Shown: piece by piece, positions 45,810 to 56,700 of the stretch | Numbering within the stretch: position 1 is the first letter of the stretch | Layout: every line of letters begins with the position of its first letter | Assembly: GCA_037927135.1 (NCBI GenBank) | Contig: JAXSPP010000002.1 | Coordinates: 1 to 64,000 of the forward strand | Length of the DNA stretch: 64,000 nucleotides | From: Candidatus Pampinifervens sinense | GTDB lineage: Bacteria > Aquificota > Aquificia > Aquificales > Aquificaceae | Direction of reading: 5' to 3' | The notes under the pieces: model-generated | Told to the model about the DNA's origin: nothing | Databases searched by the model: none | What the model saw: only the letters and a program-made list of their open reading frames with translations | Made by a program: the position numbers and the translations under genes

Positions 45810-46648
45810 ATGGGGTTTTTACTGATCATCTTCCTCTTTTGCAGCGTTCTCTTTGCAAAGGAGGTTAGGGTGGGCTTTACCGCTGTGATCTCAAAGGAGG
45901 ATACCTACACAGTTTACAGCTTTTTGGACTATCTGTCAAGGAAGACTGGACTTGTTCTGAAGCCAGTGTTTGCAAAGTCCTATGACGAGATGGACTTTTT
46001 CCTATACACGGGCTATGTGGACATCGCCTATATATGCGGAGCTCCCTTTGTGGAAGGGTATAAGAGGTTTGGCTACAGGATACTTGCAGTCCCTACCACA
46101 AGGGAGGGACCCGTGTACTATTCCTATGTTATAACCAGAAAGGAGAAAAGGTATAACTCCATCTTTGATTTTCAAGGAAAGGCCTATGCCTTTTCTGACC
46201 CCAAGTCAAACTCTGGCTCCATCGTTCCTACCTATATGCTTATGAAAAAGGGTTACAGCCCTTCCAATTTTTTCAAACCACTCATTTACACCTACTCTCA
46301 CAGCCAATCCATAATGGCCGTTTACAAAGGTTTTGTTGAAGGGGCAAGCGTGGATAGCCTTGTATACCACCAGGTTCTAAAGGTGAACCCAGAGATGGCT
46401 GAAAGTCTTAAAGTGGTGCAAAAATTTGGCCCTTTTCCTACCACCCCTTTGTGTACAGAAAAGGTTTAGATAAGGAGGTAGTTAAAAAGATAAGGCAAGC
46501 CCTGCTGGCTATGAACAAGGATGAGGAAGGGAGAACGCTACTCCAAAGGATGGGAATAGAGGGCTTTATCCTTGTGGACATAAGCTTTTACAAACCCATA
46601 CAAGAGATGATAGCCTTCATAAATAAGCATGAGGTGGCTGTTAAATAA
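45810..46648 (+). pseudogene. PhnD/SsuA-type periplasmic substrate-binding protein, frameshifted near 46445-46450
   Basis: Signal peptide, Y.SYVI, AFSDP.SNSG...P; adding one base at ACCACCCCTTTGTG restores PTTPFVYRKGLD and joins ORFs 45810-46469 and 46451-46648; may be a sequencing error. Confidence 0.75.
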
Positions 46649-48330
46649 ACTGTTAAAGCTTAGCATAGGAGCCAAACTCTCTCTTTCCTTCATGTTTGTA
46701 ATCCTTCTTACCTCCCTACCCATATCTACCCTTATGCTACTATGGCTTGAAAGGACCTTAAAAGAACACATTGAAGACACCATAAGGAAGGAGATCTTAT
46801 CAAGGGAAAACGATGTAAGGAATGCCCTGCTAAACGGTGACTATTGGACCATCTTTAAACAGGTGGAGTCTCTCTCAAGGCTAAAAGGTATAAAAGATGT
46901 GGCAGTTGTAGACAGCTCGGGCTTTGTCTTGGCCCACTCAAACCCCATGGAATACCCTATAGGTACCTACTTACCGAATTACGAAAGGCTGGAAAAGATA
47001 CCCATAGACAGCTACAACTATACGTTGGCCTACGTGGTCTTCCGTATAGATAAGGAGGCCATAGAAGCCTCCCTTATTCCTCTAAAAATAATCTCCGCAG
47101 GCCTAACTTTCTCCTTGCTCTTTATCGGCATTTTAATGGGCCTTATAGTATCCCTGAGGATTTCAACAAGGTTAAGGAAGGTCCTTAATATGGTAGATAG
47201 CTTTGAGAAGGGCAGGCTTGAAAAGGTTGAGTTTTTAGAGAAGGATGAAATAAGCACCTTTGGTGAATACATGTACAAAAGCCTTTCAAGGATCAACACT
47301 ATGATAAAAAACTCTATCTTTGAAAGGGACTTCTATCAAAGCCTTGTAAACAGCCTTCAGGACATTTTACTGATACTTGACAGGGATGGGAGGATATACT
47401 ATGCCAATAGTATGATTGAAAAGCTAGGCTATACATACGAGAGATTACTCGGTAGGTCTGTGCTTGTGCTTATAAAGGATAGCAAGGATAGAAGAAGGAT
47501 AAAGTCTAAGTTAAGGTCAGGGGAGGCTTTTATAGAAAAGGTAAAGATAAGGGCAAGCTCGGGCGACCTTTACGCCATAATGAGCTTTGTGCCTACCGAA
47601 GAGGCCATCATAGTCTCCATTAAAGGATGTGACAGAGCTCGTAAAGATGGAGGAGAACTTAAAGAGGATGGAGGTATTCTACATGCTTGGAGAGCTTAGC
47701 GCTGGTTTGGCCCATGAGTTGAAAAACGCCCTACTTCCCATAAAGCTACTATCTGATGTTCAAGATTGGGATGAGGAAGACATAAGGGTTGTAAGGTCTG
47801 CCATAAACAGGATAAACAACGTAGTTAGCACCATGCTGGAGTTTGCCAACCTAAACAGCCATCCGGAGGAGAGGGTTTCTTCAGAAGAGATTATAAACTC
47901 GTGGCTGAGCCTTTATGAGCCTTTGATAAGGAGGAAAGGGATAAAGGTAAGCACCCATGTGGATGATTTTAGCTTTAAGATAAACAAGCAAGCTTTCCAG
48001 ATAATCTTTAGCAACCTTTTCAAAAATGCCTTGGAGGCTGTGCCGGAAAATGAAGGGGAGGTGGAGGTACACTTAAAAAAGATAAACGGTAAGGTAGTCT
48101 TAATAGTAAAGGATAATGGCCCTGGTATACCCGCCAAGTACAGAGATAAGATATTTGAACCCTTCTTTACCACCAAGGGAAATAGTGGTACAGGTCTTGG
48201 CCTCTCCCTGGTTTTAAAATATACCTATGAAATCGGTGGATACTTGCATATGGAGACAAAGGAAGGAGGTGGTACAAAATTTGTCCTTGAGGTGCCATTA
48301 AAGGATGGAGAAGAGGATTTTGATAATTGA
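46629..48330 (+). pseudogene. sensor histidine kinase (TM-HAMP-PAS-HisKA-HATPase), frameshifted near 47622-47624
   Basis: Two TM helices, PAS, LAHELKN, NLFKNALEA, DNGPGI, FEPFFTTK, GTGLGL; removing one A at ATTAAAGGAT restores IKDVTE; may be a sequencing error. Confidence 0.8.
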
Positions 48331-49636
48331 TGACGATCCTGCGGTGCTATATGCTATAAAGAGGGTGCTTACTCAGAGGGGCTTTATCGTTTACACCTTA
48401 GAGTCTCCCGACAGAATGGAGGAGTACATAGATAAATGCCACCTTCTTGTGGTGGACATAAGGCTTATGAACAGGTCTGGGATTGAGGTGGTTATGGATT
48501 TGAGGAGCAGGGGTATAAACATACCCGTCATATTCATAACAGCTTATACAGACTTTGATAACATAGTTCAGGCTTCAAAGCTTGGTGCAGTGGACATACT
48601 TAAAAAGCCCTTTGATATAGAAGACCTTCTGAGGGCTATCAACGTTGCTTTAGATAGGGATAAGGGGAGGATAGTAGACCACTACGAAGAGGAGCATAAG
48701 GTAGTTGGCGCATCTAAGGCCATGTTTGAGGTCTTTAAAAAAGTTGGAATAGCAAGCACTAACGACCTGAACGTGCTTATAACTGGTGAGACGGGCGTGG
48801 GTAAGGATCTGGTGGCAAGGCTTATACACGCCAATTCAAACCGCAAAAATGGCCCCTTTGTGGTGGTTAACTGCCCTTCCGTGCCATGGGACCTTTTTGA
48901 GGTGGAGCTCTTTGGCTATGTTAAAGGTGCCTTTACAGGGGCAACCACTGACAGGAAGGGCAAGGCGGAGCTTGCCAACGGTGGAACCCTTTTCCTGAAC
49001 GAGATTGGAGACCTCCCCTATAAACTTCAAGCAAAGCTCCTAAGCTTTATAGAAAGAAAGGCCTTTTACCCAGTTGGTGGAACGAAAGAGATAACCGTTG
49101 ACGTGAGGTTCATCTTTGCTACCAACAGAAACCTAAAAGAGCTCATAGCAGAAGGTAAGTTTAGAGAGGATCTCTATCATAGGATGAACCAGATGGAGAT
49201 ACACATACCACCATTAAGGGAGAGGAAGGAGGACATAGAGCCCCTCATAAACCACTTTATAGCCATGGTAAACAGAGAACTTGGACTGAAGATAACTGGA
49301 ATATCAAAAAAGGCCCTTGAATTAGCCCTTAAACATCCTTGGTATGGCAATGTGAGAGAGCTAAAGAATGTCATATATAAAGCGGCTATAGATACAAAGG
49401 CAGGTGTAATAGAGAGCCTACCCTTAAAGGAGGAGAGGGCTAAGGGCTTTTCCCTTGAGGAGATGCTTGACCTATATATATCCTCTAAAAAGGAATCAGA
49501 ATTGGCCAACGCCCTTGAAGAGCTTGAAACAACCTTTATAAGGAGGCTACTTGAAAGGTACGGAGGAAACAAAAGCAAGGTGGCACAGCTCCTTGGCATA
49601 TCAAGGAATACCCTCAACGCTAAGCTAAAGGAGTAG
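48305..49636 (+). CDS. sigma54-dependent response regulator with Walker B D-to-N change
   Basis: Receiver IIDDD/VVD/KP, GETGVGKD, GAFTGA, LFLNEI, FREDLY, HTH. Confidence 0.9.
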   Translation: MEKRILIIDDDPAVLYAIKRVLTQRGFIVYTLESPDRMEEYIDKCHLLVVDIRLMNRSGIEVVMDLRSRGINIPVIFITAYTDFDNIVQASKLGAVDILKKPFDIEDLLRAINVALDRDKGRIVDHYEEEHKVVGASKAMFEVFKKVGIASTNDLNVLITGETGVGKDLVARLIHANSNRKNGPFVVVNCPSVPWDLFEVELFGYVKGAFTGATTDRKGKAELANGGTLFLNEIGDLPYKLQAKLLSFIERKAFYPVGGTKEITVDVRFIFATNRNLKELIAEGKFREDLYHRMNQMEIHIPPLRERKEDIEPLINHFIAMVNRELGLKITGISKKALELALKHPWYGNVRELKNVIYKAAIDTKAGVIESLPLKEERAKGFSLEEMLDLYISSKKESELANALEELETTFIRRLLERYGGNKSKVAQLLGISRNTLNAKLKE

Positions 49637-50969
49637 CCTTACCCTTCAAAAGCTTCCTAAGGGTTATCCTGTTTATGCCTAAAACCTTGGCCGTTTTAGA
49701 CTGGTTTTTACCAAGGATTGAATAGGCCTCCTCCACTATGGCATAGCCTACACTTTCTAAAAGCTTACGGTATATGCCCCTCTCACCAGCCTCTATAAGC
49801 CTTCTTACCTCCATCCTTACAACCCTGTCAATGTCCTGTGGCTCATACTCTTCCACCACAAGCTCCAAATCCTTACCTCTTAAAACATCGCCATCACTTA
49901 AGGCTATGGCCCTTCTTAGCATATTCTCCATCTCCCTCACATTACCGGGCCAGCTGTAGCTAAGCACCTTATCCAAAAAGTCCCTTGTATAACCCCTTAT
50001 CCTCTTTCCCATCTCGACGGATAAGTTCCCTATTATGCAGTTGAGCAAAAGGGGTATGTCTTCCTTTCTTTCTCTTAGAGGGGGTATATGTATATGCACC
50101 ACGCTTATCCTGTAGTAAAGGTCCTCCCTAAAGAGCCCCTCCTTTACCAAACTCTTTATATCTTTATTGGTGGCGCAGATAAGCCTAAAGTCGCAGGGAA
50201 CCTCCTTTGTGCTTCCAAGCCTCCTTAGCTTCTTCTCCTGCAAGACTCTTAAAAGCTTCGGCTGTAAGGCCAAGGGTAGGTCCCCCACCTCATCCAAAAA
50301 TAGCACACCACCCTTCGCCATCTCTATAAGGCCAGCCTTAGAGGTAGAAGCACCTGTAAAGGCTCCCCTTTCGTATCCAAAGAGCTCAGCCTCAAACAAC
50401 TCCGGTGGCACTGCAGAGCAGTTTATGGCCAAAAAGGGTCCATTCCACCTTTTTGAAAGCTTCCAAAGGGCCTTTGCAAAAAGCTCCTTTCCCACACCAG
50501 TCTCACCCGTTATTAAAACTGGCACATCCAAGGGTGCTACCTTCCCAATGGTCTTTAAAACCTCCTTCATCCTTCCCTCAGGGTTCCCTATTATGGAACA
50601 TAGCTCCTTACATAGGTCTCCAGAGAGGTTCTCTTCGCTGTAAACTATAGGTATTACTTCTTCCCTGTGGTAGAGCTCATTTTTAGCCTTTTCAATCACC
50701 TCCCTTAACTCCTTAGGATTTATGGGCTTTAGAAGCACATCATAAAAGCCAAGGCTCATAAGCTTCATGGTGTATCCTGGTAAGGTCCTTCCCGTTATGG
50801 CTATAACCAAGTTCCCATCCTCTTTAAGGTCTGGCAGTGGTGAAAGCCCAACTGTGTCCACATCCAAGATAACTATGGAGTTCCTTAGATCCTCTGGGAG
50901 TTCATCAACAGCTTTTAGGCCTTCCACCCTTAAGCCCCTGTCCTTTGTATACATGATAATAGATTCCAT
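49620..50969 (-). CDS. sigma54 enhancer-binding protein with degenerate receiver domain
   Basis: GETGVGKE, GAFTGA, LFLDEV, FREDLYYR, WPGNVRE, HTH; receiver lacks the N-terminal acidic pair. Confidence 0.9.
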   Translation of the reverse strand: MESIIMYTKDRGLRVEGLKAVDELPEDLRNSIVILDVDTVGLSPLPDLKEDGNLVIAITGRTLPGYTMKLMSLGFYDVLLKPINPKELREVIEKAKNELYHREEVIPIVYSEENLSGDLCKELCSIIGNPEGRMKEVLKTIGKVAPLDVPVLITGETGVGKELFAKALWKLSKRWNGPFLAINCSAVPPELFEAELFGYERGAFTGASTSKAGLIEMAKGGVLFLDEVGDLPLALQPKLLRVLQEKKLRRLGSTKEVPCDFRLICATNKDIKSLVKEGLFREDLYYRISVVHIHIPPLRERKEDIPLLLNCIIGNLSVEMGKRIRGYTRDFLDKVLSYSWPGNVREMENMLRRAIALSDGDVLRGKDLELVVEEYEPQDIDRVVRMEVRRLIEAGERGIYRKLLESVGYAIVEEAYSILGKNQSKTAKVLGINRITLRKLLKGKATPLA

Positions 50970-51005
50970 GTTTATTAATTATACAAGCTGTTTACAAAAT
51001 ATACA
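50969..51005. promoter_or_regulatory. tandem enhancer-like sites TGTTTA-N5-TATACA
   Basis: TGTTTATTAATTATACA (50969-50985) and TGTTTACAAAATATACA (50989-51005), 20 bp apart. Confidence 0.7.
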
Positions 51006-51057
51006 TGAGCTATATCAGGTAGGCTTGAAAGGTCATTATCTTTTTGAGGCTTCCCCC

Positions 51058-51073
51058 TGGCATGCACTTTGCA
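51058..51073 (+). promoter_or_regulatory. sigma54 (-24/-12) promoter
   Basis: TGGCATGCACTTTGCA: GG-N10-GC matching TGGCAC-N5-TTGCA; AGGAGG SD follows at 51085. Confidence 0.85.
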
Positions 51074-51098
51074 TTGAGTTAGATAGGAGGTGGATAAT

Positions 51099-53738
51099 AT
51101 GAAGCTTTGGGAAGAGGTTATAGAGAAGAATCCAAGGGAAAGGCTTAAGGCAGAAAAGCACCCCCTTGATATAATTTGGGATCTTCCAAGGCTTATAAAG
51201 GAGGGCTATGAAAGGGTCCCAGAAGAGGACCTTGTACGCCTCCAATGGTACGGCCTCTATCACGATAAACCACGCATAGGCTACTTTATGCTGAGGGTTA
51301 AACTGCCTGGTGGAAGGGTAAGGCCGGACCAGCTGAGAATAATTGGGGAGCTTGCCAAAAGCTTTAATGATTATGCAGAGCTCACCACAAGGCAGGATAT
51401 TCAAATGCATGGAATAAGGCTTGATGACCTGCCCTGGGTCTTTGAAAGGCTTTCCAGCGTTGGACTTTTGCCCATAGGGGCCTGTGGTGATACAGTGAGG
51501 AACATAACTAGCTGTCCCGTTTCAGGCGTAGATAAATATGAGCTTTTTGACGTTGAAAGGTGCATAAAAGATCTTGAGAGCTTCTTCCACAATCCAGAAA
51601 ACAAGGAATACTTTAACCTGCCTAGGAAGTTTAAGATAACCCTTTCAAGCTGTCCTTACCATTGCAACTGTCCAGAGATGCATGACCTTGCCTTTGTGGG
51701 CATGGTAAAAGATGGTGTTGAGGGCTTTGCAGTTTGGGTAGGCGGTGGGCTTTCTTCAACGCCAAGGCTTGCAAGAAAGCTAGGCCTATTCATACCAAAG
51801 GAAAAAGTCCTAGAAGTAGCCAAGGCTGTGGTGGACATATGGAGCGAAGATCCAGAAAACAGAAGGTCCTTTGTAAGGGCAAGGATAAAGTACTTCATAG
51901 ACAAGGTTGGGATAGAAGGCTTTAGGGAATTGCTTCTTAAAAGGTTGAGCTTTAGCCCAGATCTTATCAAGGAAGAGCCTGTGGCCATAGGTAGGAACTT
52001 CCATGTGGGAATAGGAGAGCAGAAGGAGGAAGGCCTTTTCTATGTGGGCTTTCCTGTGGAGGCAGGTAGGGTATCCGGCAGCCAGCTTATAAAGGTGGCA
52101 GATCTTGCAGAGGACCTAAACCTCTCCATAAGGGTCTCTCAGAGGCAGAACCTTATACTGACCCATATACCAAGAGAGGATCTTGACCATGTGCTAAGAA
52201 GGATGGAAGAGATAGGCTTTAGCCTCAAAAAGAGCATATCAAGGGGCATATCCATAGCCTGCACAAGCGACCCCTTCTGCAACTACTCCGTTGGCTCCTC
52301 AAAGGAGTTTCTTTTGGAGCTTTTGGAATATCTTGAGGAGAGGCTTGGAGATTTGGGAGATATTGCCATAGGTGTGGATGGCTGTCCCCATGCCTGCGCC
52401 CACCATTGGCTAAACGACATAGGGCTTCAGGCCACTCACATAAGACATCCCGACGGAAGCGTGGAGAGCGCGGTAAACATAGTGCTAGGAGGTGGCTATG
52501 GAAAGTATGCAAACATAGGTAGGATAGTGGCCAAGAAGGTGCCACTGCCTTTGGCAAAAGAGTACATAGAGAGGCTTATACAGGCATACAAAAGCTCAGG
52601 ACATAAAAGCTTTCAGGAGTTTGTAAGGTCTTATTCTGATGAGGAGCTTTTGAGCATTATGCAAGGTGGAAAGGCGGTGGTGCAAGAGGAGAAGGGGAAG
52701 GTAAAGGTAAGGCTCTTTGGGCCCATAAGCAGGTTTTTCGGTGGGCTTTCTGAGGTTGAGGTGGAAGCTAAGACAGTGAGAGAAGCTCTTCTGAAGCTTG
52801 AGGAGGAGTTTAAAGATTTTCGTGGAAGGGCTATTGATGAAAAGGGGGAGCTGAAGCCTTACATAAAGGTCTTTTTGAAAGAGGAGGACATAAAGTTCTT
52901 GCAAGGCCTTGATACCCCTCTTAAGGAAGGAGACGAGATAGCCATATATCCAGCCCTTGCGGGAGGTGCACCCATGTACGATGAGCTTGAGCTTCATGAG
53001 CTCGCTATTGAGTATGAAGGAAGACCGGCACAAGATGTAATAGCCTGGGCCATGGAGAACTTTCATCCAAAGCTCTACATAGCCTGGAGCGGTCAGGCAG
53101 AGGATATGGTGATCCTTGATATGGCTTGCAGGATAAACCCACAGGTCAGGGTCTTTACCGTTGATACGGGAAGGCTTCATGAGGAGACCTACAGGCTTAT
53201 GGAAAAGGTCTATGAGGTCTACGGCATAAGGATAGAGGTTTACTTCCCAGACAAGGAAGAGGTGGAGGATATGGTAAGGAGGTTTGGCGTAAACCTCTTT
53301 TACAGGTCTGTGGAGCTCAGACACCTCTGCTGTCATATAAGGAAGGTGAGGCCCCTTTTGAGGGCTTTAAATCAGGTGGATGCCTGGATCACAGGTTTGA
53401 GAAGGGAACAATGGGCAAGCAGGCACAACCTTATGAAGATTGAAGTGGACCACGACCACGGACAGATAGTAAAAGTGAATCCCTTGGTAGATTGGACGGA
53501 GAGGGATGTGTGGAAGTACATAAAGGAAAAGGGAGTGCCATATAGCGAGCTCTACGAGAAGGGCTATAGAAGCATAGGATGTGCACCTTGCACCAGGCCT
53601 GTGGCCCCTTATGAGGATCCAAGGGCAGGTAGATGGTGGTGGGAAGTGGGAGCTCCTAAGGAGTGTGGTATGCACTGCAGTCTGGAGACGGGAAGCTTTG
53701 AAAGGATATCGGACAAGATACTGGGGGAAAGGAAATGA
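51099..53738 (+). CDS. fusion: ferredoxin-dependent sulfite/nitrite reductase + MoaD/CysO-like sulfur carrier + APS reductase (CysH)
   Basis: Sir: TTRQDIQ, LPRKFK, siroheme/Fe-S ligands CTSDPFC and GCPHAC. Ubl: VKVRLF...TV.EAL...L.EGDEI.I.PALAGG. CysH: DTG, CCHIRKV.PL, W.TGLRREQ, SIGCAPC, RAGRW, ECGMH. Confidence 0.9.
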   Translation: MKLWEEVIEKNPRERLKAEKHPLDIIWDLPRLIKEGYERVPEEDLVRLQWYGLYHDKPRIGYFMLRVKLPGGRVRPDQLRIIGELAKSFNDYAELTTRQDIQMHGIRLDDLPWVFERLSSVGLLPIGACGDTVRNITSCPVSGVDKYELFDVERCIKDLESFFHNPENKEYFNLPRKFKITLSSCPYHCNCPEMHDLAFVGMVKDGVEGFAVWVGGGLSSTPRLARKLGLFIPKEKVLEVAKAVVDIWSEDPENRRSFVRARIKYFIDKVGIEGFRELLLKRLSFSPDLIKEEPVAIGRNFHVGIGEQKEEGLFYVGFPVEAGRVSGSQLIKVADLAEDLNLSIRVSQRQNLILTHIPREDLDHVLRRMEEIGFSLKKSISRGISIACTSDPFCNYSVGSSKEFLLELLEYLEERLGDLGDIAIGVDGCPHACAHHWLNDIGLQATHIRHPDGSVESAVNIVLGGGYGKYANIGRIVAKKVPLPLAKEYIERLIQAYKSSGHKSFQEFVRSYSDEELLSIMQGGKAVVQEEKGKVKVRLFGPISRFFGGLSEVEVEAKTVREALLKLEEEFKDFRGRAIDEKGELKPYIKVFLKEEDIKFLQGLDTPLKEGDEIAIYPALAGGAPMYDELELHELAIEYEGRPAQDVIAWAMENFHPKLYIAWSGQAEDMVILDMACRINPQVRVFTVDTGRLHEETYRLMEKVYEVYGIRIEVYFPDKEEVEDMVRRFGVNLFYRSVELRHLCCHIRKVRPLLRALNQVDAWITGLRREQWASRHNLMKIEVDHDHGQIVKVNPLVDWTERDVWKYIKEKGVPYSELYEKGYRSIGCAPCTRPVAPYEDPRAGRWWWEVGAPKECGMHCSLETGSFERISDKILGERK

Positions 53739-54022
53739 TAAGCTTGAAGGAGATCAAAGACAGGAAGGCCTTTGAAGAGGGGCTAAGGAAAAGGGGTTGG
53801 AAGGAGGGAAGGTTTAACGGAGGGGTATGTATGATGAAGGAACTGGAAGGCTGGCTATGGATATGCTTGGTCTTTGACCATGAGGCCAAGTTTGCCTCCT
53901 TTGCCCTTGAGGAAAGTTCAAAGATGCATTCGGAAGGTGTAAAGAGGCTTTTGGAGGAAATAAAGAACCTATCAGAGGAGTTTGACTTTGCCATGTTTGG
54001 GAGGTTAGAGTATGGTGGCTGA
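53735..54022 (+). CDS. hypothetical 95-aa protein in the sulfate assimilation operon
   Basis: ATGA overlap with the upstream gene and overlap with the downstream gene. Confidence 0.7.
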   Translation: MISLKEIKDRKAFEEGLRKRGWKEGRFNGGVCMMKELEGWLWICLVFDHEAKFASFALEESSKMHSEGVKRLLEEIKNLSEEFDFAMFGRLEYGG

Positions 54023-54773
54023 CTTTTTGGGACTTCTTCTCTTTGGCTTCTTTATAGCCTTTGCCATAGGATTAACTGGTGTAGGTGCTGGAACTCTTAC
54101 TGCGCCTCTTCTCATCTTGCTTGGCTTAGATCCTGCAAAAGCAGTTGGTTCTGCCCTTGCCTTCTCTACAGTGGTGAAGTTTCCAGCGGTGTTTACTCAT
54201 GCAGTTTACAAAAATTTGGATTATAAAACCCTTCTTCTTATGCTTGTGGGAGGAGTTCCTGGTACACTCTTGGGTTCTCTTCTTCTCAAACTGTTTCATG
54301 ACCCCTTAGGATTAAAGAAGCTTCTTCTTTTAGTCATAGGTATCACCATAATATTTTCTGTCCTTTTAAATCTACTTATGATTTGGAAAGGTAAGAGGTT
54401 TGACTTAAGCAGGTATAAATACCTTTTACCTGCATGTTGCTTCTTAATAGGCCTTGAAGTTGGTTTTACATCTGCTGGTGCTGGAGCTTTAGGTATGGTA
54501 TTGCTCTTATACTTTACAAAACTGAGTCCTGCAAGAGCGGTTGGTGTGGATATAGCCTTTGGTTTAGCCTGCTCCTTTGTAGGTGGTACCTCACACTTTT
54601 TACAAGGTCATACAGACACGGGAGTATTTCTTCCCATGTCCTTAGGTGGTCTCGCTGGAGTGTTGCTTGGGACTCATTTAGCAAGGACCTTAAATCCCAG
54701 GCCTCTAAGAATAGTTATATCACTGTTGCTTGTTGCAGTTGCCATAAACCTTATACAAAAGGGTTTGAGATGA
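54012..54773 (+). CDS. TauE/SafE (TSUP) family sulfur-compound transporter
   Basis: GLTGVGAG.L..P, AVG..L, GFTS.GAG repeat; multiple TM helices. Confidence 0.88.
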   Translation: MVADFLGLLLFGFFIAFAIGLTGVGAGTLTAPLLILLGLDPAKAVGSALAFSTVVKFPAVFTHAVYKNLDYKTLLLMLVGGVPGTLLGSLLLKLFHDPLGLKKLLLLVIGITIIFSVLLNLLMIWKGKRFDLSRYKYLLPACCFLIGLEVGFTSAGAGALGMVLLLYFTKLSPARAVGVDIAFGLACSFVGGTSHFLQGHTDTGVFLPMSLGGLAGVLLGTHLARTLNPRPLRIVISLLLVAVAINLIQKGLR

Positions 54774-55519
54774 TGGGTAAAGTGTACATAGTAGGTGCAG
54801 GACCAGGAGATGTGGAACTTTTAACCCTAAAGGCGTACAAAATCATAAAATCTGCAGATGCCATACTTTATGACAGACTCATAAACCAAGAGATACTGTT
54901 CCTTGCAAAGCCTAACTGCGAACTTCTGTATGTAGGCAAAGAGGACGGAAAGCACACCATAGAGCAAGAAAAGATAAACGAGCTTTTGCTCAGATACGCC
55001 CACACAAAGGATACAGTGGTTAGACTAAAAGGAGGAGACCCCTTTGTCTTTGGAAGAGGAGGGGAAGAAGCCCTCTTTTTAGCACAGCATGGTGTAGAGG
55101 TGGAGGTAGTGCCCGGAGTTAGCTCTGCCATAGCGGTACCATCCTACGCAGGCATACCCTTGACCTTCAGAGGCATATCCTCTTCCTTTGCAGTCATCAC
55201 AGGACACGAAGACCCAAGAAAAGAACACTCAGACATAGATTGGGGAAGTTTGAAAGGCATAAACACCCTTGTCTTTCTGATGGCGGTAAAAAACAGGCAG
55301 GAGATAGCCAAAAGGCTTATAGAGGTAGGGAGGGACCCAAAGGAGCCTGTGGCCTTTATAGAGAATGGGACCACAGAGAAGCAGAAGGTTATACTTACAG
55401 ACCTTTATGAGCTTTCCACAAACCCGCCTGAGGTAAGCCCTCCTGCCATCATGGTGGTGGGACATGTGGTAAGACTGAGGGAAAAATTAGCATTAAAGGA
55501 GGTTGAGGCATGCTTATAG
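54770..55519 (+). CDS. cobA: uroporphyrinogen-III C-methyltransferase (siroheme synthesis)
   Basis: VGAGPGD.ELLTLKA, YDRL, VRLKGGDPFVFGRGGEE, VPGVSS, GIPLT.R. Confidence 0.93.
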   Translation: MMGKVYIVGAGPGDVELLTLKAYKIIKSADAILYDRLINQEILFLAKPNCELLYVGKEDGKHTIEQEKINELLLRYAHTKDTVVRLKGGDPFVFGRGGEEALFLAQHGVEVEVVPGVSSAIAVPSYAGIPLTFRGISSSFAVITGHEDPRKEHSDIDWGSLKGINTLVFLMAVKNRQEIAKRLIEVGRDPKEPVAFIENGTTEKQKVILTDLYELSTNPPEVSPPAIMVVGHVVRLREKLALKEVEACL

Positions 55520-56700
55520 CACCCCATGGAGGAGAGCTTGTAAACAGGGTTGTGCCAGAGAGGGAAAGGGTAAAGATACTGACTGAGGCCGAGAGGTACC
55601 CGTCCCTCCATGTGGATAGGGATACACTCCTTGACGTTGAGAACATTGCCACAGGCGTCTTTTCGCCCCTCAAGGGCTTCATGACAAAAGAAGAGCTTGA
55701 GGGTGTGGTCTATCATATGCTCCTTCCAAGCGGTCATGTCTGGACCATACCCATACTTCTACAGGTGGAAGAAGAGGTGGCAAGGTCCCTTGGACCTGGA
55801 GAGAGAGTGGCCCTAAGGGACGATGAAGGCAGGCTAAAGGCCCTGCTTGATGTTAAGGACATATATCCCATAGAGTTGGAAAAAGTTGCCAGGCTTGTAT
55901 GGGGTACGGACATCAACGAACACCCAGGCGTGAAGACCTTTTACTCAAAGGGAAGATGGGCCATAGGCGGTGATATTTGGCTTTTGGAAAGGGTAAACCA
56001 CCCCCTTAGGGATTGGGTACTGGACCCTGAGGAGACAAGGAAGGTCTTTGAATATAGGGGTTGGAAGAGGGTGGTGGGATTTCAAACTAGGAACGCACCC
56101 CATAGGGCCCATGAGTACCTTCAGAGGATAGCCCTTGAAATAGCAGATGGCCTTTTTATAAACCCTGTCTTGGGCTGGAAGAAGTCTGACGACTTTGACT
56201 CCTACACCGTTTTAAGGGCTTATGAGTACCTTATAGATAACTACTATCCTTCCAAAAGAGTCCTTCTCTCTGGACTTGCCACGGCCATGAGGTATGCGGG
56301 CCCGAGGGAGGCGGTCTTTCATGCTATAGTAAGAAAGAACTTTGGATGCACCCATTTTATAGTGGGCAGGGACCATGCGGGCGTTGGAAACTTTTATGGT
56401 CCTTACGATGCACACAGGATCTTTGATAGGCTTCCAAAGGACATAGGCATAGAGATAATAAGGGTTACTGCTGTCTTTTACTGTAGCCTGTGTGGTTGTA
56501 TGGCATCGGACAAGAGCTGTGGGCATGAGGAAGTCTACAGAACCTATGTTAGCATGACAAAAATAAGGGAGATGTTGAGGAAGGGCCTTGTTCCACCAAA
56601 GGAGATGATAAGGGAGGATATAGCTAAGCTCCTATTCGACCTTGAGTTCACCCATAAGAAAGGCTTTATGGTCTCTGAGAAAGGCCCTGAGGAAAGATAG
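55510..56700 (+). CDS. sat: sulfate adenylyltransferase
   Basis: PHGG.L, SPL.GFM, FQTRNAPHRAHEY, MRYAGPREA..HA..RKNFGCTHFIVGRDHAGVG. Confidence 0.96.
   Translation: MLIAPHGGELVNRVVPERERVKILTEAERYPSLHVDRDTLLDVENIATGVFSPLKGFMTKEELEGVVYHMLLPSGHVWTIPILLQVEEEVARSLGPGERVALRDDEGRLKALLDVKDIYPIELEKVARLVWGTDINEHPGVKTFYSKGRWAIGGDIWLLERVNHPLRDWVLDPEETRKVFEYRGWKRVVGFQTRNAPHRAHEYLQRIALEIADGLFINPVLGWKKSDDFDSYTVLRAYEYLIDNYYPSKRVLLSGLATAMRYAGPREAVFHAIVRKNFGCTHFIVGRDHAGVGNFYGPYDAHRIFDRLPKDIGIEIIRVTAVFYCSLCGCMASDKSCGHEEVYRTYVSMTKIREMLRKGLVPPKEMIREDIAKLLFDLEFTHKKGFMVSEKGPEER

Follow-up and report, generated by a model that had tools for sequence, protein, structure and literature searches.

Sulfur carriers of the ThiS/MoaD type are beta-grasp domains whose adenylation requires a free C-terminal glycine carboxylate, a point established for ThiS and MoaD and set out in passages of the survey by Iyer, Burroughs and Aravind (Genome Biol 7:R60; PMC1779556). 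That survey noted in 2006 a sulfite reductase (SiR) joined to a ThiS domain in actinobacteria (Nocardioides and Acidothermus; its Table 1, row 4e), and the same passages place these SiR-ThiS genes in sulfate-assimilation operons and describe their E1 as lacking a rhodanese domain. The gene examined here lies in the window, the whole stretch of 64,000 nucleotides that was analysed (positions 1 to 64,000 of the forward strand of contig JAXSPP010000002.1, assembly GCA_037927135.1) from Candidatus Pampinifervens sinense, a hot-spring bacterium of the Aquificaceae. It joins SiR, a ThiS-type carrier and the adenosine 5'-phosphosulfate (APS) reductase CysH in a single uninterrupted open reading frame (ORF) at 51099-53738 (+), stop codon included, with a product of 879 aa (P0001). 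The Gly-Gly that ends the carrier (G622 and G623) is internal in this product, is followed by Ala-Pro-Met and leaves 256 residues downstream of Gly623. The free C-terminal glycine carboxylate that is the hallmark of a sulfur carrier is therefore absent from the primary 879-aa chain and is possible only after proteolysis. A carrier needs its Gly-Gly free, yet selection keeps the Gly-Gly and the domain intact while both are buried in the chain. Either bacteria routinely cut metabolic polyproteins at ubiquitin-like domains by means of JAMM proteases, or such domains have a job that does not depend on a free end.

Carrier fusions that are cut after the carrier have been described in other settings. 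MoaX of Mycobacterium tuberculosis is cleaved at Gly82|Ser83, and cleavage is required for its activity, according to PMC4326299. Passages of PMC8832034 report that DRJAMM cleaves the natural MoaD-MoaE fusion of Deinococcus radiodurans (DR2607) and that archaeal JAMMs cut linear SAMP fusions whatever residue comes after the glycine. For routes with free carriers, Table 2 of PMC13759103 gives MetO, MetM, Mec and MoeZ as accepted enzymes, and the MetY of Wolinella uses a carrier thiocarboxylate in the account given in passages of PMC8191291. Already known, then, are SiR-ThiS fusions, from the 2006 note, and JAMM-cleaved MoaD-MoaE fusions, the latter established by experiment. In the HcyS system of Wolinella, a JAMM protease reportedly trims GG-Ala, after which the carrier is said to take sulfide from sulfite reductase.

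What is new is the three-module form with its carrier between two enzymes of one pathway, the derivation of this form from a split gene pair and the selection on a buried Gly-Gly. The passages of PMC1779556 that bear on SiR-ThiS contain no mention of a triple fusion. In the searchable literature, which excludes subscription journals and supplements, nothing turned up that describes the triple fusion or reports experiments on SiR-ThiS, which appears there only in the 2006 genomic note.

Architecture of the fused protein

The ORF listing offers an alternative GTG start at 51090 (51090..53738 +, 882 aa). Translation more likely begins at the ATG at 51099, because a ribosome-binding site (AGGAGGTG, 51085-51092) precedes it and because homologs start MKLWEE. 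Within the 879-aa protein, Pfam finds NIR_SIR_ferr (1.8e-34) and NIR_SIR (1.1e-53) in two stretches each, ThiS over residues 537-623 (6.1e-10; 40 bits, cutoff 22.5) and PAPS_reduct over residues 659-834 (1.4e-50). NCBIfam adds the thioredoxin-dependent APS reductase model TIGR02055 (266.2 bits, cutoff 235.3), and residues 535-623 fall just under the NCBIfam cutoffs for SAMP1 (57.6 bits, cutoff 60) and moaD_arch (47.1 bits, cutoff 49.5). The siroheme-[4Fe-4S] cysteine ligands of SiR, in the pattern Cx5C … Cx3C, are found in CTSDPFC and GCPHAC, and all four (C388, C394, C429 and C433) are invariant in 12 triple fusions. The same is true of C744, C745, C828, C831 and C856, which belong to the CysH motifs CC...CxxC and ECGMH; in iron-sulfur APS reductases, CC…CxxC supplies the cluster cysteines and the cysteine of ECG[ML]H is catalytic. 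These results bear out the original prediction, made from the sequence alone, which had read three modules in one frame, placed the carrier at 52701-52967 (exactly the coordinates of residues 535-623), named all of the motifs above and pointed to the internal Gly-Gly with alanine next.

The SiR module also matches an NCBIfam nitrite-reductase equivalog, at 332 bits and thus under its cutoff of 594. The operon context of sat, cysH, cobA and a TauE permease argues for sulfite rather than nitrite as the substrate. A second siroheme protein of 948 aa is encoded elsewhere in the genome (C3:161446-164292, -). It is NirB-like, with a NIR_SIR part behind an N-terminal half that, judged from its sequence, resembles a pyridine-nucleotide-disulfide oxidoreductase. 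This protein probably serves as the assimilatory nitrite reductase, so that sulfite would fall to the window SiR.

Occurrence of the triple fusion

The original prediction had proposed a search for this domain architecture across Aquificae, and the architecture recurs both there and in a large protein database. In the database, 12 protein clusters carry all four Pfam families in a single chain, at identities from 99% down to 46%; cluster P0002, whose 74 member sequences are all called at 879 aa, is 99% identical to the window protein. In a sample of 151 Aquificota genomes, a single open frame over residues 1-879 with no internal stop is present in at least 13 genes of at least 12 genomes from three genera, at 66-95% identity, both counts being lower bounds among the matches listed. 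Contigs from three other studies were also compared with positions 50900-54100 of the window. All of their insertions and deletions lie beyond the ORF, at 51050/51056 and 54036/54042, and gap-free contig pieces span the carrier-CysH junction (X5 record 5, 52068-53439; X7 record 15, 52537-53027). This frame check rests on insertions and deletions, substitutions being seen only among those listed.

Of the best 150 representatives at 50% clustering (out of 1.84 billion), a single one spans all three modules, so the triple fusion is real but rare. Such rarity would be in keeping with a sequencing or assembly error, or with a functionless read-through that is recent and pseudogene-like. An artefact of this kind is hardly credible given the single-frame genes of three genera, the 12 clusters, the absence of any insertion or deletion within the ORF in the contigs of the three other studies and the strong purifying selection on all three modules that is described below, and it was rejected on these grounds.

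Origin from a split gene pair

In two sister genera, the match to the window protein splits at query residue 624/625 into SiR-ThiS and cysH. The SiR-ThiS proteins of genomes G143, G055, G034 and G141 end in ALAGGVS, ALAGGVCDEV, ALAGGVDNEV and ALAGGAL, respectively, each directly before the stop codon. In the split loci, cysH begins immediately with M[RK]FDE[LI]EIHEL, and its start overlaps the SiR-ThiS stop (…GGA GGT GCA CTA TGA…). The window junction reads …GGA GGT GCA CCC ATG TAC GAT…, with the old cysH start methionine as residue 626. Judged from these alignments, a small frame-restoring change ran the SiR-ThiS gene into cysH in part of the Aquificaceae.

A wider survey produced 129 locus entries, classed by script from two scans of named genomes in which some contigs were entered twice. 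A SiR-ThiS ORF, mostly with an exact PAL[AS]GG end before its stop codon, is followed by a separate cysH in 72 of the 129 entries. Another 29 entries have SiR and cysH without ThiS, none of them in one ORF; 16 have cysH only, 5 are cut by contig ends and 7 are single-ORF triple fusions (6 contigs, from five Aquificaceae/Aquificota metagenome-assembled genomes (MAGs) and one Anaerolineae MAG). The two-domain SiR-ThiS form occurs in Chloroflexota, Actinomycetota, Acidobacteriota, Armatimonadota, Gemmatimonadota, Rhodothermus, Aquificaceae and others, including the cultured acidobacterium Pyrinomonas methylaliphatogenes K22. In this widespread form, the protein stops at the Gly-Gly or 1-6 residues later, and cysH stands directly downstream as its own gene. 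By sequence comparison, the SiR-ThiS arrangement is far wider than Aquificae, the split pair is ancestral and the triple fusion is a rare form derived from it, none of which had been part of the original prediction; nor had the prediction noted that SiR-ThiS was already published.

The Anaerolineae triple fusion differs from its nearest split relative by one in-frame stop (…AMSGG-stop-SGETAM…VVFDDLELGEI), and translation of the fused gene turns the former spacer into a variable linker of ~22 residues. As its alignment reads, this fusion arose independently of those in Aquificaceae. In other fused genera, the junctions are GGSHTFDEL, GGSPTFDEL and GGAPSFDEL, with the old cysH methionine replaced by threonine or serine. 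Internal re-initiation at Met626 was considered as a general source of free CysH and was rejected because this methionine is lost in those genera.

Two genomes add observations on the history of the gene. G012, a complete genome of the same genus, has two triple-fusion genes (C1:1363789-1366425, L020, and C1:164519-167134, L036), which are 95% and 69% identical to the window gene; the second has the junction of another genus, GGSHTFDEL, suggesting that the gene or operon as a whole was transferred laterally. In G128, an Aquificaceae MAG of 77% completeness (contig C132, L034:25-1807), SiR ends in …EELLKIMKSSQEVCDEI before its stop codon, the ThiS domain is gone and cysH is next. Either the carrier was deleted naturally or the contig, which is 4.5 kb long, is misassembled.

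Selection on the carrier domain and its Gly-Gly

The PALAGG tail, with G622 and G623, does not vary among the 12 triple-fusion clusters, and the Gly-Gly is kept in every two-domain SiR-ThiS relative aligned as well. The original prediction had held that a product of full length only, together with loss of the Gly-Gly in orthologues, would refute a carrier role; the orthologues retain the Gly-Gly. Ratios of nonsynonymous to synonymous substitution (dN/dS) were calculated across 13 fused genes by the Nei-Gojobori method for pairs without synonymous saturation, synonymous sites being near or past saturation between genera. They amount to 0.05-0.09 for ThiS, 0.09-0.18 for SiR and 0.03-0.09 for CysH, and to 0.27-1.9 for the 14-residue tether between SiR and ThiS (residues 521-534). 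Long after the fusion, purifying selection acts on the ThiS domain as strongly as on both enzymes. The low dN/dS of ThiS and the invariant Gly-Gly imply that the carrier still works in the fused state.

The nearest solved relatives of the domain are the CysO-type carrier 4n6e_B (7.1e-10), 1v8c_A, the M. tuberculosis CysO 3dwg_C (3.1e-8) and SAMP1; its PDB relatives include 2l52_A. The second of these, 1v8c_A, is a Thermus thermophilus 'MoaD related protein' of 168 aa that aligns to window 52689-52985 and has an internal Gly-Gly of its own at residues 87-88. The fused domain also shares 51% identity with a free carrier encoded in the same genome (C3:10700-10978, +), a CysO/SAMP1-like protein of 92 aa that ends AIAGG-HI. 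An AlphaFold2 (AF2) model of the fusion from a 12-row alignment has a mean predicted local distance difference test score (pLDDT) of 76.2 and a predicted template modelling score of 0.62. In the model, strands and helices are found in residues 533-618, and pLDDT drops below 50 at residues 525-532 and 620-625, which are both boundaries of ThiS.

Partner enzymes in the genome

The original prediction had seen no E1, JAMM or cysteine synthase gene in the window and had suggested a genome search for the first two; all three turn out to be encoded on other contigs, with their motifs intact. The sole ThiF-type E1 is a MoeB/UbaA-like protein of 271 aa on contig C6, too short for a rhodanese domain. 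The sole Prok-JAB is on contig C5 (94.3 bits). Its metal-site motif E..HSH-x7-S-xx-D is intact, with E23, H83, H85, S93 and D96 unchanged in every one of 19 orthologs. CysM is on contig C9, above the equivalog cutoff, and a ThrC paralog with an N-terminal Zn-ribbon is at C1:298820-300049 (-). A search of the same genome for Cys/Met-gamma pyridoxal-phosphate enzymes of the MetY/MetB/MetC type gave none above cutoff. Neither E1, JAB, CysM nor the ThrC paralog lies within the window or adjoins another of the four. A 67-aa ORF with a weak ThiS likeness and an SGG end (C1:77470-77673, -; 20.8 bits, below cutoff) was also seen, between a gene read from its sequence as metF and one for a 158-aa protein, a few kb off small genes that read as TusA- and DsrE-like.

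JAB is present in 11 of 12 triple-fusion genomes, the exception being G113 (83% complete). Five SiR-ThiS genomes from other phyla were tested, the fused Anaerolineae MAG among them, and each has JAB. Its co-occurrence with the fusion was tried as a discriminating test and set aside as uninformative, since nearly every genome of the two main families has JAB (f1, 71 of 72 genomes; f2, 42 of 44). Its presence is a necessary condition for cleavage and does not discriminate.

Other genomes with SiR-ThiS show some of these genes side by side. Pyrinomonas K22 has the order cysM - JAB - ThiS-ThiF-Rhodanese (L184:1918-3363), with a Cys_Met_Meta_PP enzyme also adjoining, and in the Anaerolineae MAG, JAB is next to a ThiS-Rhodanese-ThiF gene (L188:3-854). 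Both genomes thus join a carrier of this family, at its now internal Gly-Gly, to E1 itself, beside JAB. In a Dehalococcoidia MAG, homologs of the ThrC paralog (60%) and of the free carrier (56%) abut directly upstream of SiR-ThiS/cysH (L144:1479-3303). This single locus hints at a candidate MetM/MetO-like thiocarboxylate route to homocysteine.

Proposed maturation and its alternatives

The fusion probably must be cut at the Gly-Gly of its carrier to work. The reading preferred here, to which we give about even odds (a probability of roughly 0.5), is that JAB cuts after Gly623 to leave a sulfite reductase with a tethered carrier and a free CysH. The 879-aa precursor would be translated from a sigma-54 promoter transcript, and the single genomic JAMM/JAB would then turn the ~100-kDa chain into a ~70-kDa SiR-ThiS with a free Gly-Gly and a ~30-kDa CysH, these masses being rough estimates from residue counts. 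The new ends would be …YPALAGG on SiR-ThiS and the N-terminal peptide APMYDELELHEL / APMYDELELHELAIEYEGR on CysH, so that the released CysH would correspond to the stand-alone CysH of the sister genera with two extra N-terminal residues. CysH would convert APS to sulfite and SiR would reduce sulfite to sulfide. The rhodanese-less MoeB-type E1 would adenylate the tethered carrier, and the nascent sulfide would make its thiocarboxylate. CysM, the Zn-ribbon ThrC paralog or both would use the thiocarboxylate, and JAB would free the amino acid and regenerate the carrier.

This reading is favoured because the proposed products are the two proteins that sister genera encode apart. The same JAB would already have to trim the short tails of carriers of this family. 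All 11 Aquificaceae-type two-domain SiR-ThiS proteins have a tail of 2-6 residues past the Gly-Gly, and 7 of 9 free carriers have 1-3 residues there, from which it follows that trimming after Gly-Gly is already needed in this lineage. A complex test between JAB and fusion residues 530-650, run with custom alignments, scored 0.45 (best of 3 controls, 0.01), with contact agreement between runs of at least 94% and a partner pLDDT of at least 76. In the benchmark of this test, 58 of 80 solved complexes attained the mark, as did 2 of 110 mismatched pairs; at scores of 0.60 or less, just 7 of the 80 solved complexes did so, along with both passing mismatches. JAMM complexes with ubiquitin-like proteins have already been solved, and the pass may reflect memorised structures. 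The cleaved MoaX and MoaD-MoaE fusions and the internal Gly-Gly carriers beside JAB in Pyrinomonas and the Anaerolineae MAG also count in favour of cleavage, as does the low pLDDT at both edges of ThiS, although structure prediction contributes little.

Several observations weigh against cleavage by JAB. The predicted complex of JAB and ThiS is weak support on the benchmark figures above, and the near-universal presence of JAB in the two main families belongs here too. Near the 129 locus entries there are 0 JAB, 0 CysM and 1 E1 genes, which gives no neighbourhood link to the partners. The genome's own CysM is no closer to the CysO-dependent CysM of M. tuberculosis (3dwg_A, 8.4e-58) than to E. 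coli CysM (2bht_A, 6.3e-69). Between the Gly-Gly and the conserved first helix of CysH there are ~3 variable residues, a short handle for a protease. ThiS is dispensable for SiR and CysH, as the 29 of 129 entries without it and its loss in the G128 MAG indicate, and four SiR + CysH clusters without ThiS (P0014-16 and P0042) exist. In alignment, three of these four have Arg/Pro/Ala-rich sequence that replaces the C-terminal part of SiR and one has a large gap, and they were set aside as probable wrong-frame or deleted gene calls.

The original prediction had left the choice between a polyprotein cleaved at Gly-Gly and an uncleaved channelling enzyme; of these, the former is favoured by the split orthologs, by selection on ThiS and its Gly-Gly and by the partner enzymes, and the latter is less supported. 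An uncleaved trifunctional enzyme, in which ThiS is a spacer or docking module that places CysH by SiR for direct passage of sulfite and Gly-Gly is a hinge with no thiocarboxylate, is somewhat doubtful. It would fit a fusion that unites two consecutive enzymes of one pathway with so few variable residues past the Gly-Gly, and it needs no JAB, E1 or CysM linked to the locus and no cleavage, for which the complex prediction gave weak support. That SiR and CysH function without ThiS in many lineages (the 29 loci and G128) is also in keeping with a dispensable spacer, although in none of those 29 loci are SiR and cysH in one ORF. A hinge would also have to account for an invariant PALAGG and a ThiS dN/dS of 0.05-0.09, as in a working carrier, and for a domain 51% identical to the free carrier of its own genome. 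Sister genera, moreover, part both proteins exactly at the Gly-Gly, so linkage of CysH is not needed.

Partial or regulated processing would keep both forms in the cell, with the JAB cut as a control point that answers, for example, to sulfur status or oxidative stress; the precursor would be inactive or channelling, and the cleaved form would feed the thiocarboxylate route. All of the evidence for cleavage counts for this possibility too, and an own sigma-54 promoter with a dedicated activator speaks of tight regulation. The activation of MoaD-MoaE by DRJAMM has been linked to oxidative stress, as passages of PMC8832034 describe. The split orthologs show, however, that constitutive separation is viable, and regulated processing is unlikely. 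Another proposal is that SiR, after cleavage, is conjugated through Gly-Gly to lysines of partner proteins in the manner of SAMP modifiers and is not a sulfur carrier. The SAMP1 model does score 57.6 bits on the fused domain and 65.3 bits on the free paralog, the E1 resembles the SAMP-activating UbaA (353 bits) and JAB resembles the desampylase (75.9 bits), both of the latter below cutoff. The constant linkage to sulfate-assimilation genes across phyla suggests sulfur transfer instead, CysO-type carriers are among the nearest solved relatives, and we know of no precedent for conjugation of a ~60-kDa enzyme to targets, which makes such a modifier very improbable.

A bolder extension of cleavage by JAB at Gly623 is that sulfide never leaves SiR free in these bacteria, which are microaerophiles of hot springs. 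The tethered carrier would capture it as thiocarboxylate, its obligatory exit, and the fusion would be a true polyprotein matured by a deubiquitinase-like JAMM. This is offered tentatively, as a rather unlikely idea. If it is true, the JAMM cut releases CysH and arms the carrier in one step, and the gene is a prokaryotic counterpart of ubiquitin-fusion precursors within primary metabolism and a possible control point of sulfur assimilation.

Operon context and neighbouring genes

The features of the locus are listed in Table 1. The pattern TGGCAYN5TTGCW has TGGCATGCACTTTGCA as its sole match in the 64-kb window (expected 0.11; at least one match in 11 of 100 shuffles), and the contig of a related strain (X7) has TGGCATGCATTTTGCA at the same promoter position. 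The divergent activator gene is also found beside the split loci of the sister genera, and the sulfate-assimilation operon seems to have its own enhancer-binding protein. Pfam and NCBIfam confirm the TauE, cobA and sat genes that the original prediction had placed downstream. Its statement that APS kinase is missing extends from the window to the genome, which is 99.96% complete and has no match to PF01583, and this fits a direct APS route.

Table 1. Features of the SiR-ThiS-CysH locus (window coordinates)
Feature	Position	Strand	Basis
Sigma-54 activator (bacterial enhancer-binding protein), no recognised receiver domain, divergent	49620..50969	-	Sigma54_activat 3.3e-68 + AAA_lid_14
Putative sigma-54 type -24/-12 promoter TGGCATGCACTTTGCA	51058..51073	+	26 nt ahead of start codon
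Ribosome-binding site AGGAGGTG	51085..51092	+	sequence; 7-14 nt ahead of ATG 51099
Whole SiR-ThiS-CysH ORF, 879 aa	51099..53738	+	Pfam, NCBIfam; single frame in 12 protein clusters
Sulfite reductase module with siroheme-[4Fe-4S] centre, ferredoxin-dependent NirA/SirA type, residues 1-520	51099..52658	+	Pfam
Variable tether SiR-ThiS, residues 521-534	52659..52700	+	fast-evolving; low AF2 pLDDT
ThiS/CysO/SAMP1-type beta-grasp carrier, residues 535-623, PALAGG end	52701..52967	+	Pfam ThiS, PDB relatives
Gly622-Gly623 + Ala-Pro-Met junction; proposed scissile site after Gly623, former cysH start codon	52962..52976	+	
Fe-S APS reductase CysH module, residues 627-879	52977..53735	+	TIGR02055
Conserved ORF95, 95 aa, overlaps fusion stop codon	53735..54022	+	no family
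TauE/SafE-family permease	54012..54773	+	Pfam TauE 1.1e-40
CobA, uroporphyrinogen-III C-methyltransferase (siroheme branch)	54770..55519	+	TIGR01469 303.6 bits, cutoff 185
ATP sulfurylase Sat	55510..56700	+	Pfam ATP-sulfurylase + PUA_2; NF003166 494.7 bits, cutoff 387

ORF95 follows cysH in all Aquificaceae loci examined, and weaker matches (24-35% identity) follow cysH in five loci without ThiS (L122, L123 and L126-128). Residues G21, W22, K35, S55, H65, G68 and L72 are invariant, and no cysteine is conserved. The possibility that ORF95, which ends in GG, is a second carrier was rejected since neither the GG nor a cysteine is conserved. Its AF2 model has a pLDDT of 82 and the order beta-alpha-beta4-alpha. 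Searches of Pfam and NCBIfam gave no match, the best Atlas score of 0.82 pointed to no family, and neither Foldseek against the PDB (at E <= 0.001) nor a profile search against the PDB returned anything. In the VIA wide structure search, the best Z of 8.4 was within background, with no clear structural relative. The background-level matches include residues 88-165 of 1v8c_A, the domain behind its Gly-Gly (Z 6.5), which is a coincidence or a weak lead. Elsewhere in the window, a sensor histidine kinase is found in two overlapping frames (46629-47699 and 47629-48330, +), with a PAS part and then a HisKA + HATPase_c part; the gene may be frameshifted or split, or the assembly may be wrong at this point. 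A receiver-sigma54-HTH_8 regulator comes next (48305-49636).

Significance and comparison with known systems

The locus is a probable case of a bacterial metabolic polyprotein processed at a ubiquitin-like domain, within a widespread and unstudied family of carrier-bearing sulfite reductases. Whether the domain acts through a freed end or in some way independent of it, the answer informs both the prokaryotic roots of ubiquitin processing and the way in which thermophiles handle volatile, oxidisable sulfide. The system is testable, since several triple-fusion genomes are single-contig assemblies and the two-domain form is available in the cultured Pyrinomonas strain.

The closest described relative is the SiR-ThiS protein of the 2006 survey, which has the same sulfite reductase with ThiS/MoaD directly behind it and is likewise found in sulfate-assimilation clusters. 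The carrier is C-terminal there, whereas here the 256 residues past its Gly-Gly belong to CysH and leave no free carboxylate. MoaX and the MoaD-MoaE fusion share with the window protein a ThiS/MoaD-type carrier with an internal Gly-Gly ahead of a pathway enzyme. Their activity depends on a cut after the second glycine, which a JAMM protease makes in Deinococcus, and the present genome encodes a JAMM with an intact metal site. They belong to the molybdopterin pathway, and their N-terminal carrier is released as a free small protein; here, the carrier would remain on the enzyme ahead of it, with release limited to the enzyme behind it. The thiocarboxylate routes to cysteine and homocysteine, namely CysO-CysM-Mec-MoeZ in M. 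tuberculosis, MetO-MetM-Mec-MoeZ in Streptomyces and HcyS-MetY in Wolinella, use the same carrier family, and this genome has its own E1, JAB, CysM and ThrC paralog. In those routes, free small carriers are encoded beside their partners, whereas here the carrier is within the sulfide-producing enzyme and the partners are scattered. Eukaryotic ubiquitin precursors (polyubiquitin and ubiquitin-ribosomal protein fusions) are freed by deubiquitinases after Gly-Gly and offer a further parallel, in which a beta-grasp modifier is made in a longer chain and freed at the same dipeptide. Their proteases are mostly of another kind, their purpose is protein tagging and they have no tether to an upstream enzyme.

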